A stretch of 64,000 nucleotides of DNA from Syntrophales bacterium (lineage in GTDB: Bacteria > Desulfobacterota > Syntrophia > Syntrophales > UBA2210), in the NCBI GenBank assembly GCA_963662405.2, contig CAXXKT010000001.1, positions 2,400,001-2,464,000 of the forward strand. Direction: 5' to 3'. The position numbers were made by a program. Of the stretch, positions 38,087-50,000 are shown one piece after another. How positions within the stretch are numbered: the stretch's first letter is position 1; each line of letters starts with the position of its first letter.

Positions 38087-41000
38087 ACGGTTCGAATCCG
38101 TTCGCCCGCTCCATTTTTTTGGCGGCATAGCCAAGTGGCTAAGGCAGCGGTCTGCAAAACCGTTATTCACCGGTTCGAGTCCGGTTGCCGCCTCCAAGAA
38201 ATAACAAGGGGTTAGCCTACAACGGCTTGCCCCTTGTTTGTTTCAGGGTGCGTATAGGGTGCGTTTGGTTGCGTGTCCAGTTCGTCAATGTCCGATCTGC
38301 TTTCCTTTGGAAGCCATTTGTAATAAGTCCTATATGTGATTTCCGTTGTCGAATGACCCATTTCCTTGCTTACCTCTGCCAGGGAATCCCCTTTACTCAA
38401 TCGCAAGGTAGCATAGGTGTGCCTCATATCGTGCGGGGTCCGTCTTCTCAGTTTTGACTTATCCATGCCCCGGTTCCATACACGATGAATGAAGTTGCCA
38501 TAATTCAAGGGTGTACCGTCTTCATTGTTGAAAACCCATTCCGGCATAGACTTCCATCCCTGTTTAAGCGTTCTCTCTGCCATGTACTTTTTATGCTGTG
38601 TGAGAAGCTCTGCAAGTTGTGAGGTCATTCTTACGTGACGACGGCTTGACCGGCTCTTAGGGGTCGTTATTTTGCCCCGCGTGATGTTCCTTTGCACAAG
38701 TATCAACTTTTGATAGAAGTCAATATCCCCCCACTGTAGGCCGATAATTTCACCTATTCTGAGACCGGTTCTAAATCCACAAATGACAAGGGGATAATAT
38801 GTCGGATACTCTTTTAAGAATGTCTGTTCAAGTTTTGCGCGCTCTTTCCATGACAAAGGGTCCGGTTCTTTTACTTGCCGTTCATCTTCGGGTTTCGGTA
38901 TGGGAACCCCTCGCGCAGGGTTTGAAGAGATGAAACCATCAGGATTCACGGCATGCCTTAAAATTGCGCTCAGACAGTTTTTTATATTCCTTGCCGTGCT
39001 ACTCCTTAACCCTCCCTTGATCTTTTCGCTTATAAGGTCGCTGATCATTCGTGACGTGATTTCATCAAGGGGTTTCGATCCAAAAGCAGGTAAGAGGGTT
39101 TCATCAATTATGAGTCGATAGCTACGGTACGTAGAATGCTTCAGAGATAGGAGGGCAACTTTTTTATACCAACCGGTTTGAGATTTGCCTTCAGAGTCTT
39201 TCCAGCCGTCAACATATTCCTTGAGGGTAGGGGGCTTAGAGGATTTATCATCAATCCCCATTTCTCCCAGGGTCAATTTTGCTTCGATCTTCCTTGCGGC
39301 CTCCTGGGCAATACGCTTATCATGCCCCACCTTCTTTGATTTGCGTTTCCCGTTGTGATTGATAAACAACCACCATTCCCCGGACCCTTTGACCTTTTCT
39401 TTGACCTTGACTCCCATAATTCACCCCTTTTCAAGGGGCCAGGACACCCGCCCCGGCCCCTTTCTCGAATCTGTGATTGTTTATCCCGCCCCATATAGTC
39501 CGCCCCGAATTAACGTTAAGTGAGGGGCAGAGGTTTTTACCTTTTCAACTACAGGTTTTTGATCTTCTTGCCATTTCTTATACACATCTTGCCATTCTGC
39601 AAGTCGTTGCTTGCCTACTTTAACATTTTCCTTATGCCGGACTAGCCATTTCCTGCTAAACCTCAAACCCATTTCCAGAAAGGCTTTATCCATACCGCTC
39701 TGATTTGGATGTGTTTTCTTTCGCTCAAGCCACTCCTTTATTTCTTGCCGACAATCCCTTACCCCTTTTTGATGTAGGGCAATCCTGTTTTTTTCAATAG
39801 CGATAAAGTCTTTAAGGTATTTTTCACGACCCTCTTCAAACTGCTTCCATTCTTCCGATACATAAAACCGCATTGCTCCTCTCCTTTCAAAATAGAAAAC
39901 CCCCCGAAGACTTCTCAAGGCCATAGGGGACCGCCCCCCACGTTACCGGGGAGGGAATCTTCAGGGGGTTTTGGGTGGTCTGTAGCTTTTTCATGGCCCT
40001 ATGGTTTGAGATTGAATGTAATGCTGTATATACAGCTATACCGCATGGAGGTCAAGAATTTTGTGTTGCAATACAGCAAAAAATACCATAAATGATACCC
40101 ATGGATAAAAAACATGTAACATTCAGAATTGACCCGGCAATTGTAAAAAAAATGAAATTCCTTTCCGTAGAAAAGGATAGGTCTCTAACTGACTTATTTC
40201 TTGAAGCCATTGAAGACCTCCTGAAAAAATATGAAAAGCCTAAGCGAATGAAATAACTTACTGCCTTTTTCGCCAAGGGGGAGTTATGGATTTTAATAAG
40301 CCGGTCAAATATAGTAATTATATTTCTGGATTTTTGGCCATATGCCTATTTATTGTTTTGCCGTTTTTTATCTTAATGGATACTTGTTCTACATCATCTC
40401 CGCCCCCCACACCTGAACAAATTGCTGCTAAGCAATTACGTATGGATGATATGGACGCACGGACATGGGCCAGAATATATGTCAAAAATTCACTTAAATC
40501 GCCTTCAACAGCTAAATTTCCAAACGTGCTCGACTATATAGTCGCAAGAGCAGCAGACGAAAAAGGCAATATCATAAAGGATACATGGATAGTCTCTAGC
40601 TACGTAGATGCTCAGAATAGTTTCGGTGCAATGCTGAGAAGCAGATGGTGTGTTACGCTTAAAAAAGTAGGTGACAAGTGGATTGCACTTGACGTTGATA
40701 TACGATAATCATGTCTTAAGGATTAAATTTGTCTCTAAGACGCGCCTTCTTAGCCTCCCCTCTAAAAGTCGATTCTGGGCGGCTTTTCTAATGTCAAAAC
40801 CGCCATTCTGTCGGATTTGTTGCAGTCGTTTTACAAATCGGCAATTTTCGCCGTTTTCAAAGAACAAAATGGGAGGGGAGGGGTGTTTCCACCCCTCCCC
40901 CTGAAACAGCGAGCAGGGGGAGCGGCCTTGCCCGCTGTTTTTGTGTGCCGATTCACGTTCGGAGGTACGCAATCGGCCGCGAGTTTTGCTGAAACCAGGT

Positions 41001-47000: not shown

Positions 47001-50000
47001 GGGTGTGCCTTGTTATTCTTAGCATTTTGCACACCTCGCCCCTCGACAGACCCCTTTCTAAAAGCGTCAAGATTTTCATCTCCATTTCCGTTAAATGAAC
47101 CTCGCCTTTCTACTAATAGTAAAAAAGGGGCTAAAAGCGTCGCTATTTAAGGTGTTTTTTCTTCATCCTGTGCAAATGGTCACGCAAACTTTTTTTTGAA
47201 ATATCCAATAGTTCTGCAATTTCAGCCCTTGAAAAACCTTTTTCTGAAAGCGTCGCTATTTTCATCTCCATTTCAGTCAAATGAACCCCGCCAGGAACAC
47301 TCGGCCTCTTGCCAAAAACTCCTTGACAGTCTCAAATTCCATTGATTCCCTCCTACTTATAGGAAAAAATTGTAAAATCTTGCGTTTTGCTGAACGAATC
47401 TGATAGCTTACCTGCTCGCTCGATAATTTAAGATAAACCCCGTATTGGTTGGCTGAAGATAATCTTGATGCAATCTGCTTGTAGGTAAGACCCTCGAAGT
47501 AGAAAAGGTGGAGACACTTGTTTTGAAGGGGAGTTCACTTAGAAATTGACTCTTATCGACTTATAGACTATGTTTTTCACAGCACCATGCAAGGTGCGGC
47601 AGTAGGGTGCGTATAGGGTGCGGATTACGGCAAAATATACGCAATTTGTGATAGCCAAGGGCTAGTAATATCGGTAACTTAGGGTGGCTCCTGTGTCCTG
47701 CAAAACCGTTATTCACCGGTTCGAGTCCGGTTGCCGCCTCCAATTGTAAGGTGGGGGATAGGCCTCTGGCGTATCCCCCATCGTAGTCTTATTCGTGCCC
47801 TTTGTTCTGTTGTCCTGCCTGCCGATCTTGGAGGAGAAAGCTATGGCCTTCGAAAAGAAGATCTTGTGTATCGGGGCGGGGTATGTGGGCGGCCCGACAA
47901 TGGCGATGATAGCCCATAAGTGCCCCCGGTACAAAGTCACGCTTGTCGATACCAATCCCGATCGTATCGCCGCATGGAATTCCGACACGCTCCCCATATA
48001 CGAACCCGGCCTTGATGCGATTGTAAAAGGTACGCGCGGTCAGAACCTTTTTTTCAGCACCCGGGTCGAAGAGGAGATCCGGGAGGCGGAGATTATCTTT
48101 GTCAGCGTCAATACCCCGACCAAGGAATTCGGCGCCGGCGCCGGTATGGCCGCGGATCTTCAGTATTGGGAAAAGACGGCCCGGCAGATACGAGAGGTAT
48201 CACGATCCCCGAAGATCATTGTCGAGAAGAGCACTCTCCCCGTGAGAACAGCCGTGGCGATGGAACGGATACTGACCGCCACCGACAACGGGGTCCGTTT
48301 CGATGTCCTCTCCAATCCGGAGTTCCTGGCCGAAGGGACGGGGATACGGGACCTGGAGTTTCCCGATCGGGTCCTGATCGGGTCGCATGAGACGCCGGAG
48401 GGTATCAGGGCCCGGGATGAACTGGTTGAGATCTATGAAAACTGGGTACCCCGTGACCGTATCATAACATCCAATATCTGGAGTAGCGAGTTGTCGAAGC
48501 TCGTCTCGAACGCCTTCCTGGCACAGAGGATATCCTCGATAAACGCCATCTCCTCCCTGTGTGAACAGACGGAGGCGGACGTCAGCGAAGTGGCTCGGGC
48601 GGTGGGTATGGATAGCCGTCTCGGGAACAAATTCCTGAATGCCAGCATCGGGTTCGGAGGATCATGTTTCAAAAAGGATATCCTCAATCTGGTTTACCTG
48701 TGTCGCCAGTATGGCCTCGATGAGGTTGCCGATTATTGGCACGGGGTGGTACGGATTAATGAATACCAGAAAGAACGATTTATCCTGAATATGCTGCGAG
48801 CCATGTTCAATACCCTCGTGGGCAAGAGGATATGCCTCTTCGGCTTCGCTTTCAAGGCCGACACGGGTGACACGCGGGAAAGCCCTGCGATTGCCGTATC
48901 CAGAAGGCTTATCGAGGAGCAGGCCGATCTGGTAATTACCGATCCCCGGGCCCTGGCGAACGCCGCGGCGGACCTTGCCGACCTGCAGGAAAAGGTAACC
49001 TTCGTTGCGGAGCCGTATGCGGCGGCCGCAGGGTGTGACGCCATAGCCGTCATGACCGAGTGGGATATCTACACCGCGCTGGATTTCGAAAAGATATATG
49101 CAACGATGCAAAAACCTGCCTTCATCTTCGACGGCAGAAATATCCTCGATCACCAGAGACTCTTCACGATAGGGTTCAATGTCTTTCCTGTCGGGAAACC
49201 CCCGATGACGCACTTTTAGGGAACGGTATCGGGAAATGATACCCAGGAGAGGATATCATTTCCCGGAATACAGCATTCTTTTCCCTTCCCGGAGGAGGCA
49301 AGAGATGCCGATGGATATCTTGACCGGCGGCACCACACCCTGTGGTAAACAACCGATGATCATTATCCTTACCGATCTTGACGGGACCCTTTTGGATAGC
49401 GAAACCTACTCCTGCCACGCAGCCTCCGAGGCCCTGCAGGCGGTTGCCGATCTCCGAATTCCCCTTGTGATAATGAGCAGCAAGACGAGGAGTGAAATCG
49501 AATCGGTGCGCCGCGATCTGGGCAACCCTCATCCCTTTGCCTCGGAAAACGGAGGCGGCCTTTTTGTCCCGGAAGGATATTTTCCTTTCCCCACCCCGTA
49601 CACCCGCAGGGTGGAGGGATGCCTGGTCGTCGATATCGGCGTCTCCTATACGCGCCTGACGGTGTTTCTCGAGGGAATCGTCCGGGACCATTCACTCCCG
49701 GTCAGGGGGTTCCACTCGCTGTCGGTGGAAGCGGTTGCCCGCCTCGCCGGGCTTCCGCTTGAGTCGGCCGCACGGGCGAAGGATCGTGAGTACGACGAAC
49801 CCTTTCTGTTTGACGGAAATGAAGAGCAGTGGGGCCTGCTGGAGGAGATGACCGCGACGGAGGGCCTGACACTCACCCGCGGGGGACGGTTTCACCACCT
49901 GAGCGGCCCCCATGACAAGGGGACCGCCGCTCGCATGCTTGTCGAGTGGTATCGATGGTGGTATCCGGATGCCCTCATTGTCGGGCTGGGGGATGCCCCC

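Follow-up and report, generated by a model that had tools for sequence, protein, structure and literature searches.

A portal-less 9.6-kb element at a Syntrophales tRNA-Cys gene that apparently belongs to an old, undescribed lineage of PICI-type satellites

What use does a small integrated element make of a major capsid protein (MCP) when it encodes no portal, no large terminase subunit (TerL) and no tail? This question is raised by a locus in the window (the whole stretch of 64,000 nucleotides analysed here, from a Syntrophales genome), which the genome-wide survey's note had described as a satellite bounded by a 46-bp att repeat at tRNA-Cys and as a type distinct from the two families it had already listed. 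The element occupies 38152..47743 (9,592 bp) and carries att repeats at both ends:

38121..38196, + strand: tRNA-Cys, the host target gene (ARAGORN)
38152..38197, + strand: att core, left copy, 46 bp, 100% identical to the right copy
47698..47743, + strand: att core, right copy, 46 bp, 100% identical to the left copy
38245..38263 and 47604-47622, no strand: 19-bp direct repeat found by repeat search, probably the arm-type site of the integrase

The left att copy makes up the 3' portion of tRNA-Cys, and the repeat is real as described. Inner repeats of 19-26 bp are similarly present in many complete relatives, and the G+C content of the element is 0.47 versus 0.54 for the contig. Family searches recovered the reported gene set, namely an integrase, a helix-turn-helix (HTH) regulator, a replication initiator (Rep), a DnaB-like helicase, a small terminase (TerS), an HK97-type MCP and two small proteins downstream of it, together with an Xis-like protein.

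The absence of the remaining packaging and virion genes was also borne out, since none of the 14 scanned ORFs matched portal, TerL, protease or tail families in HMM searches, and local head and tail profiles had no match anywhere in the element. The P4-like markers Sid, Psu, Delta, Ash and alpha were likewise not found among the 14 ORFs. Three short-read runs of a single sample, which may be the source sample, gave contigs that match the element throughout, without differing letters or gaps; one of these contigs spans 38168-45418, so that a portal gene was not lost through assembly. The depth in these contigs was 5.4 for the element and 5.9-7.25 for the flanks; no excised circle, joint, raised depth or particle was seen, and such contigs drop rare forms. 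The numbers of predicted promoters and terminators were no higher than in shuffled sequence.

The MCP and its relatives are described first:

41993..43306, - strand: HK97-type MCP of roughly 435 aa (TIGR01554; PF05065 over residues 140-420; phrog_10)

It scored 162.9 bits against TIGR01554 (cut-off, 27.5), and its N-terminal extension of about 130 aa may be delta-domain-like. In comparison with nine relatives, pN was 0.20-0.26 and pS at least 0.75; the gene is under purifying selection. The MCP falls in a clade of 23 tips (UFBoot 100, stem 0.36) with 18 complete elements; of the 36 portal/protease-type loci in the comparison, none falls in this clade. The 19 distinct complete relatives measure 6.4-10.7 kb (median 8.6 kb) and encode an integrase in 17 cases, TerS in 14, HNH in two, TerL in none, and primases or Rep in most. 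Portal, protease, neck and tail-tube genes were found in none of 89 clade loci, many of them short and some duplicates, nor among 84 further ORFs of the 19 complete elements; among the 89, one locus has TerL next to a clade MCP (L227) and one has a tape-measure-like gene (L270). Two relatives are circular contigs, one is closed at a 43-bp repeat, and L189 has the same 46-bp att sequence at tRNA-Cys. As judged from sequence, the element is an att-bounded, intact member of a clade of small elements keeping an HK97 MCP, usually with TerS and a cos-like site.

The survey's note had itself raised the caveat of a decayed capsid-forming PICI (cf-PICI). Loss of portal, protease and TerL, either anciently from a cf-PICI-like ancestor or by recent decay, would agree with the nesting of the clade in a 36-tip MCP group (UFBoot 100), separate from phage MCPs, that also includes seven small elements or fragments bearing TerL or portal genes (e.g., G041, G083 and L271), with the TerL of L227 and with the fragmented-looking regulatory end of the element. 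Recent decay is rejected, since complete elements lacking a portal make up an entire clade; moreover, remnants of portal or TerL genes are absent, none of the 89 clade loci has a portal, and synonymous sites are saturated. The clade and the cf-like group are only weakly joined as sisters (UFBoot 66, FastTree 0.20), in a tree without a tested root. We consider reduction improbable as a full account of the element, while ancient loss fits the explanation preferred below as well and concerns origin only. Among 49 clade MCPs, the presumed maturation site is Asn in 16, Arg in 16 and Ala in 14; Asn for Arg as a sign of a defective MCP was therefore discarded, Asn being as frequent as Arg.

The claims on relatives in the survey's note hold in part. 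It counted relatives of the capsid protein in eight of 100 Syntrophales; here, 15 of the 150 other genomes compared from this order had MCP matches. The HNH-TerL of G041 and G083 was correctly reported, with the omission that both also have a portal and a protease-MCP fusion. The elements in G017, G008, G062 and G091 are indeed portal-less, but their MCPs are distant (26-36% identical) and lie outside the clade; none of the six cited Syntrophales relatives belongs to this lineage. Identity between the MCP and the 123 phage-type MCPs compared does not exceed 43%, and for this reason no helper is named. Used as a single query, it had no match in viral contigs, so that alignment-based searches were needed, and its profile matched none of the solved-structure sequences.

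The packaging module consists of two parts:

43518..43868, - strand: P27-family small terminase (TerS), 116 aa (phrog_83, E 1e-5)
43941..43988, - strand: cos-like packaging site comprising a G-run, AAATCT, about 18 nt and an ACCG-core (trained motif)

TerS scored 20.4 bits (E 7e-4) against PF05119, under the cut-off of 24.7, and was below the NCBIfam cut-off as well; 28 of its 30 Atlas neighbours carry Terminase_4 (score 0.95). The cos-like site lies 120 bp before TerS and may be cut near 43941-43949. Its motif was trained on 35 relatives with the window left out and reached a total score of 462, versus 305-314 in three shuffles. The site at 43941..43988 is the best in the window (24.2 versus 15.8) and also genome-wide (7.59 million positions). 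The top match fell at the known junction in one of three reference phages: in phage D3 the top site is at the record end (11.9 bits), in Kronos the site between HNH and TerS ranks third, and the SfV junction was missed. The motif also marks the HNH-terminase junction in the phage loci L115, L276 and L128. An earlier, hand-written cos regular expression was too unspecific and was superseded by the trained motif.

TerS and the cos-like site indicate portal-dependent dsDNA packaging, which bears on a further explanation, that of an autonomous small HK97-fold entity without portal and tail, or an encapsulin-like shell, as in the 'twilight' viruses (bioRxiv 2025.06.18.659913). The size range, the integrase with a replicase and the missing portal and tail would fit; however, 'twilight' genomes are without terminase and have encapsulin-like MCPs (bioRxiv 2025.06.18.659913), whereas a Pfam search gave no encapsulin family match among the ORFs of the element. 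We regard this explanation as very unlikely.

Directly behind the MCP, in an arrangement as in phage head operons, are two small genes:

41436..41942, - strand: 168-aa jelly-roll protein (o168; predicted structure, pLDDT 93.8)
41063..41422, - strand: 119-aa beta-sandwich protein (o119; predicted structure, pLDDT 95.6)

Both are probably capsid cement or decoration proteins, a call based on VIA-align Z-scores of the models, gene position and an Atlas lead of 0.87 (Bbp16, 18% of members). The o168 model aligned with YomS (Z 11.3), XepA (Z 11.1) and the BPP-1 cement protein (Z 8.9), and for o119 the trimeric cement protein of KHP40 came out best (Z 8.2, with 97 aligned at an rmsd of 3.2), in a tie with unrelated folds; Foldseek gave no match for either at E <= 0.001. 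In head operons of phages, homologues of o168 are encoded after the MCP. Of 94 distinct loci with an o168 homologue, 79 are phage-type, as are 40 of 72 distinct loci with an o119 homologue. The small genes are up to 81% identical to a phage copy, compared with at most 43% for the MCP, and among the 19 complete relatives o119 is present in seven and o168 in three. These genes appear to be optional in the lineage and to have been acquired from phages repeatedly.

The remaining genes serve integration, replication and regulation, or have no assigned role:

38212..39417, - strand: tyrosine integrase, 401 aa (phrog_1, E 7e-71; PF00589)
39481..39924, - strand: ORF of up to 147 aa, no match in PHROG, Pfam, NCBIfam or PADLOC searches
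40092..40256, + strand: ribbon-helix-helix (Arc-like) protein, 54 aa (PF20605 above cut-off; phrog_3180)
40286..40708, + strand: 140-aa cargo protein, hydrophobic over a stretch near its N terminus, of a phage family without assigned function (phrog_13160, E 6e-14; no PADLOC match)
44008..44811, - strand: DnaB-like helicase, C-terminal domain only, 267 aa (PF03796; phrog_19)
44768..45118, - strand: ORF of 116 aa, no family; an orthologue lies between rep and MCP in L279
45105..45752, - strand: replication initiator, 215 aa (phrog_2514, phrog_270)
45749..45955, - strand: ORF of 68 aa, with a counterpart at 70% identity in the C2 tRNA-Pro element
45952..46170, - strand: excisionase-like HTH, 72 aa (phrog_66, E 9e-6; TIGR01764 below cut-off)
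46189..46392, - strand: Cro/C1-type HTH regulator, 67 aa (PF13443; phrog_1468)
46478..46696, - strand: fourth LuxR/sigma70-r4-type HTH frame, diverged, without ATG start (PF08281 and PF00196 above cut-off)
46727..47292, - strand: three 186-bp units (tandem-repeat search: 3.0 copies, 72% matches)
47277..47534, - strand: sigma70-r4-like HTH remnant frame (PF08281, E 4.5e-5, below cut-off)

The integrase gene is the last of its operon. Three further ORFs between the decoration genes and int were absent from the survey's note, and PADLOC matched none of five cargo ORFs. Two identical 21-bp repeats inside rep (45396-45416 and 45475-45495) are candidate iterons. The regulators match HTH_26/HTH_3 and HTH_17 in Pfam, with a MerR match of only E 0.027 and no AlpA match. 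The three tandem repeats already reported are real, and we add that they code for HTH units: each consists of a 47-aa GerE/LuxR-type HTH frame and a conserved non-coding linker with in-frame stops, PF00196 was above cut-off in all three, and dN/dS between the units is 0.18-0.27. A single ORF frameshifted by assembly error was rejected, since the short-read contigs agree and the linkers carry in-frame stops. The units and the linker motif were absent from all loci retrieved. The regulatory end of the element has a fragmented look.

Could the missing parts be provided within the same genome? The 9.5-kb C2 tRNA-Pro element carries HNH-TerS-TerL, the genome's only P27-type TerL among them, and a cos-like site, and has no MCP. 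Its Rep is 88% identical over 121 aa to that of the element, and the 68-aa ORF is common to both. Portal and tail genes are present in a lambda-type prophage at C1:2.347-2.378 Mb. Against such complementation, the TerS proteins of the two elements are barely alike, the prophage has a gpA-type TerL and an MCP unrelated to that of the element, and no HK97-type portal or S78 protease family match was found in the genome outside the prophage's own fused gene; an SPP1-type portal was searched for and not found. Complementation is thus very doubtful, and on gene content the prophage does not match as helper, a matching one being absent from this genome.

We therefore favour, with a probability of roughly two in three, a PICI-type satellite that borrows the rest of the virion from a helper phage of the cos/HNH (HK97/P27-like) kind. 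After helper infection, the element would be excised by Int and Xis and replicated by Rep and the helicase from an origin in rep, and one operon would express TerS, MCP and the two cement proteins. The satellite MCP would enter procapsids around the helper portal, either mixed with helper coat (Ccm-like) or as the main shell protein, and would be matured by a helper or host protease, resulting in small heads fitting 6-11 kb. TerS with helper TerL and HNH would cut the DNA at the element's own cos-like site, neck and tail would come from the helper, and the cement proteins would probably stabilise the shell. Points against this explanation are that no excised form and no close phage MCP were found, that the regulator does not appear to be of the AlpA, MerR or Stl kind and that int stands at the operon end; the result for the cos motif at reference junctions (one of three), the TerL of L227 and the tape-measure-like gene of L270 are further such points.

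It is also conceivable, if rather unlikely, that the MCP is not the packaging shell and that the element rides normal helper heads via TerS and cos, the MCP and cement proteins serving interference, competition with other satellites, or a helper not yet met. EcCICFT073, which has genes for a capsid protein and a head-decoration protein, still interfered with lambda when either was deleted, and its DNA is packaged in heads of full size, from which it follows that capsid remodelling is not a necessary role of a capsid gene in a PICI (PMC6092414); in addition, the relatives differ 1.7-fold in size, a wide spread if cos packaging fills a single shell size with unit-length DNA. However, all 19 complete members are below 11 kb, the full-length MCP is under strong purifying selection, and the cement genes follow it as in phage operons. 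A bolder proposal, which we put forward tentatively, is a class half-way between PICI and cf-PICI, in which satellite MCP and cement proteins would by themselves build a shell of very small size (T=3 or T=4), suited to 6-11 kb, and only portal, protease, TerL, neck and tail would be stolen. Related MCP lineages would supply the steps of such a series: MCP only, MCP with TerS, TerL with MCP, TerL with MCP and portal, and MCP with tape measure. If this is true, the clade is a natural system for studying the function of PICI capsid genes and the minimal size of an HK97 dsDNA head.

The role of satellite capsid genes is settled for Ccm alone, and they were dispensable in the EcCICFT073 deletion tests (PMC6092414). 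As an independent case, the lineage indicates that selection keeps a full HK97 MCP in elements of at most 11 kb that have neither portal nor protease, with cement genes repeatedly taken from phages. It also widens the host range of PICI-type satellites to anaerobic bacteria of the deltaproteobacterial type; we found no literature report of such satellites from Desulfobacterota, and the supplementary lists of SatelliteFinder may include such hosts. The cos motif and cement genes can point to a helper family.

Concerning known systems, the gene architecture itself is already published. PICI type A is defined by integrase, regulator, primase-replicase, capsid and TerS with the portal forbidden, has a median of 9.5 kb, and is known in 97% of cases from E. 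coli (PMC10085698). The element agrees in its integrase, regulator, replicase, capsid, TerS, tRNA att site and size of about 9.5 kb, and in lacking portal, connector, tail and holin, the primase-replicase being represented functionally by Rep and the DnaB-like helicase. It differs from type A in having these two replication proteins, int last in the operon, its own MCP clade, and regulators that are Cro/Xis-like, with LuxR-type units; the published type A regulators are AlpA, MerR or Stl homologues. EcCICFT073 and PmCI172, the latter an MCP-encoding PICI that makes small capsids, resemble the element in that a head-decoration gene (a probable one in the element) comes after the capsid gene, that packaging is of the cos kind and that portal and TerL are absent (PMC6092414); the cos of EcCICFT073 is lambda-type and its helpers are lambda and phi80, whereas the element has an HK97 MCP probably of the delta-domain type, a P27 TerS, a cos-like site resembling that of D3 and probable cement proteins of jelly-roll fold.

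SaPIbov5 Ccm, the precedent for the proposed mechanism, is likewise an HK97-type capsid homologue of a satellite with a cos helper and no protease or portal of its own; it co-assembles with the helper coat, is cleaved without a satellite protease and fills pentamers only, in a Firmicute host with a prolate helper (PMC8569155). The element has TerS and probable cement genes in addition. With cf-PICIs (prototype EcCIEDL933), the element shares an HK97-type MCP, TerS and cos/HNH-type packaging, but not the defining portal, protease, head-tail connectors, HNH and TerL (bioRxiv 2022.09.08.507074). PICI-like tycheposons, a marine cyanobacterial group likened here by description, are also small and integrated at tRNA genes; they carry MCP or TerS, and their modules for integrase and replication have been exchanged (bioRxiv 2020.12.28.424599). 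The cement proteins Bbp16 of BPP-1 and that of KHP40 agree with o168 and o119 in jelly-roll fold and MCP-adjacent gene, a likeness seen in models and gene order. The description as a distinct satellite type was therefore overstated, since the gene set is that of PICI type A (PMC10085698) and a capsid with a decoration gene occurs in EcCICFT073 (PMC6092414); what is distinct is the lineage, with its MCP clade, P27 TerS, D3-like cos and probable jelly-roll cement genes, within a kind of element already known.

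The satellite is a real element whose structural and replication genes are intact. Its position at tRNA-Cys, as claimed in the genome-wide survey's note, was borne out by a 46-bp repeat with 100% identical copies, the left of which forms the 3' part of the tRNA gene; the G+C content of the element is 0.47 versus 0.54.

38152–47743: satellite, 9,592 bp
38152–38197: left copy of the 46-bp repeat
47698–47743: right copy of the 46-bp repeat
43988–43941: cos-like motif site, 120 bp before the small terminase gene (TerS)
47342–47277, minus strand: 21-codon frame with an ATG start and a strong ribosome-binding site
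47331–47143, minus strand: first LuxR-type HTH unit

The minus-strand order begins with the LuxR-type HTH units, a Cro-like HTH gene, a Xis-like gene, a 68-aa ORF and Rep, and continues with a 116-aa ORF, the DnaB-like helicase, TerS, the HK97-type major capsid protein (MCP) and the 168-aa and 119-aa ORFs, beyond which come a pair of plus-strand ORFs and then a 147-aa ORF and the integrase. Family scans of 14 ORFs gave no match to portal, large terminase (TerL), protease or tail families, in line with the claimed absence of portal, TerL and tail. Short-read contigs (three runs of one sample, possibly the source) agreed with the satellite letter for letter, a single contig covering 38168–45418; they contained no excision joint, and the depth of the satellite was similar to that of its flanks.

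Each 186-bp repeat unit contains a frame for a 47-aa GerE/LuxR-type HTH (above the Pfam cut-off in all three), after which come a stop codon and a conserved linker. Between-unit dN/dS was 0.18–0.27, and the units lie between a sigma70-r4-like remnant and a further HTH frame, the fourth, which has diverged. As such units were absent from all fetched loci, they do not represent a family feature; as a guess, they might switch on the operon. The 21-codon frame is one base off the register of the first unit, across a T run whose sequence was confirmed by the short-read contigs, indicating a real frameshift or recoding site.

Training on the regions upstream of TerS in 35 relatives, with the window left out, gave a 48-nt motif that reached a total of 462 versus 305–314 in shuffles. 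Its top site in both the window and the whole genome is 43988–43941. In six of seven held-out relatives, the best site, in some cases with a low score, lay 375–733 nt before the MCP gene or just before TerS. In phage D3, the site (11.9 bits) lies in the HNH–TerS interval and stops precisely where the record does on its right side, a record end taken to be the cos site. The Kronos site in the HNH–TerS gap ranks third, and the motif misses the SfV record end, where the same G-run and AAATCTCT were seen by eye. Reading these record ends as cos sites rests partly on gene layout; the record-end convention for SfV-like phages is based on PMC3636060.

MCP relatives were collected from 150 genomes of the order (15 with a match), 300 of the class (22 with a match), 74 metagenome loci and eight viral contigs; as the searches were seeded with close relatives, the clade was sampled by construction and the test bears on gene content. 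Att-like or terminal repeats bound 23 other loci, which after removal of four near-duplicates leave 19 distinct complete relatives of 6.4–10.7 kb (median 8.6 kb; two, L043 and L216, bounded by 20–22 bp repeats only). Among these, integrase was found in 17, TerS in 14 (12 via local profiles, two via PHROGs), the 119-aa and 168-aa genes in seven and three, HNH in two and a tape-measure-like gene in one. No portal, TerL or protease turned up when 84 additional ORFs from the complete relatives, each 125 aa or longer, were scanned with PHROGs. Across 89 clade-MCP loci, many short and some duplicated, none had portal, protease, neck or tail-tube genes, and one had TerL. At L227:1–2415, a clade MCP directly follows TerL, within which the contig begins, and precedes tRNA-Pro with no portal between. 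Two circular clade contigs, L191 (9.07 kb, two tandem TerS genes) and L237 (8.1 kb), had no detected tyrosine integrase.

In a 66-sequence MCP tree, the clade (UFBoot 100, stem 0.36) contained 18 complete elements and none of the 36 portal/protease-type loci, and the window MCP showed pN of 0.20–0.26 against nine relatives, with pS saturated. The gene content, tree placement and low pN led us to reject recent decay from a cf-PICI, a caveat raised in the survey's note. The clade's ancestor may have lost portal and TerL long ago: the clade belongs to a group of 36 tips (UFBoot 100), along with further portal-less elements and seven TerL/portal-bearing elements or fragments, but its sister relation to the latter is weak (UFBoot 66) in a tree that is midpoint-rooted only.

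The six Syntrophales relatives named earlier fared differently. Those of G017, G008, G062 and G091 are indeed portal-less, one with a tape-measure-like and one with a neck-like gene, but their MCPs (26–36% identical) fall outside the clade. Those of G041 (L021) and G083 (L023) carry HNH–TerL as reported, and also a protease–MCP fusion and portal; this gene set makes these ~10-kb tRNA-linked elements cf-PICI-like. L271 and L274 share this size and gene set, and the four form a compact cf-PICI-like group, in which no head–tail connector was detected. L270 (G244) and L026 (G091:C1), small tRNA-integrated elements of two different MCP lineages, combine an MCP with a 670–740 aa tape-measure-like gene and have no portal or TerL.

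Predicted structures of the 168-aa and 119-aa proteins are high-confidence beta-sandwich folds. The former resembles YomS (Z 11.3), XepA (Z 11.1) and the BPP-1 cement protein (Z 8.9), and the latter the KHP40 trimeric cement protein (Z 8.2, with unrelated folds scoring within 1). Fold and gene position suggest that both are cement proteins. Homologues lie behind the MCP in full-phage head operons (terminase, portal, protease, adaptors, tail), phage-type loci making up 79 of 94 distinct loci for the 168-aa and 40 of 72 for the 119-aa protein. The 168-aa protein is 81% identical to the copy in phage locus L049, whereas none of 123 phage-type MCPs exceeds 43% identity to the satellite's MCP. Placed on the tree, eight satellite copies require seven changes, a pattern that suggests repeated capture of these genes by satellites. 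Four phages (L050–L052, L143) with lambda-type TerL and portal yet an HK97-like protease–MCP fusion carry both genes, 74% and 72% identical to those of the window.

The same genome contains the following elements.

C2:19.06–28.6 kb (L034:4061–13602): 9.5-kb tRNA-Pro element, 48-bp att repeat
C1:2,346,600–2,378,000 (L293, L294): lambda-type prophage with gpA-type TerL, portal, protease–MCP fusion, head decoration and tape measure
C1:119.2–128.6 kb (L288:5224–14582): 9.3-kb tRNA-Arg element, 64-bp att repeat

No HK97-type portal was found in the genome, and its sole P27-type TerL is in the tRNA-Pro element, which has integrase, Rep, primase-helicase, HNH, TerS and a cos-like site, and no MCP or portal; it shares with the satellite the Rep N-terminus (88%) and the 68-aa ORF (70%). 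The prophage MCP is unrelated to that of the satellite, and no lysis gene was found among 24 scanned prophage ORFs. Three further copies of its early and terminase region (L295–L297; C1:251 kb, 1,958 kb and 2,652 kb) end just after TerL without portal, as repeated truncated prophages. The tRNA-Arg element has an integrase and a Rep-like gene, contains an inserted IS and gives a cos-like match (19.2, C1:124438); no capsid or terminase gene was detected in it. We infer that the helper is an incoming P27/HNH-type phage.

Concerning known satellites, de Sousa et al. (PMC10085698) require an integrase, a regulator, a primase-replicase, a capsid gene and TerS in a PICI, allow neither portal nor connectors, and give a median of 9.5 kb, type A being 97% in E. 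coli. Regulator aside, the satellite shows the testable type A features; its Cro-like HTH, Xis-like and LuxR-type units are candidates for that role, with HTH_26/HTH_3 and HTH_17 matches in the satellite, MerR at E 0.027 only and no AlpA. The genes that define cf-PICIs (portal, protease, connectors, HNH, TerL; bioRxiv 2022.09.08.507074) are absent from the satellite. EcCICFT073 has genes for a capsid and a head-decoration protein, deletion of which left interference unrelieved, and PmCI172 has an MCP homologue and produces small capsids (PMC6092414); SaPIbov5 Ccm supplies the pentamers in T=4 shells and is cleaved without a satellite protease (PMC8569155). Other small elements bearing MCP or TerS appear in PMC9618062 and in the tycheposon and small-HK97 preprints. 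Searches of largely open-access literature, SatelliteFinder supplements excluded, found neither this lineage nor PICIs from these hosts described. The satellite type claimed as distinct did not hold up, given the largely shared type A features and the capsid and decoration genes of EcCICFT073. The satellite probably works like a capsid-gene-bearing PICI and is not a new kind of satellite; what appears to be new is the lineage, marked by a separate MCP clade, a P27 TerS, a putative D3-like cos and borrowed jelly-roll genes for putative cement proteins.
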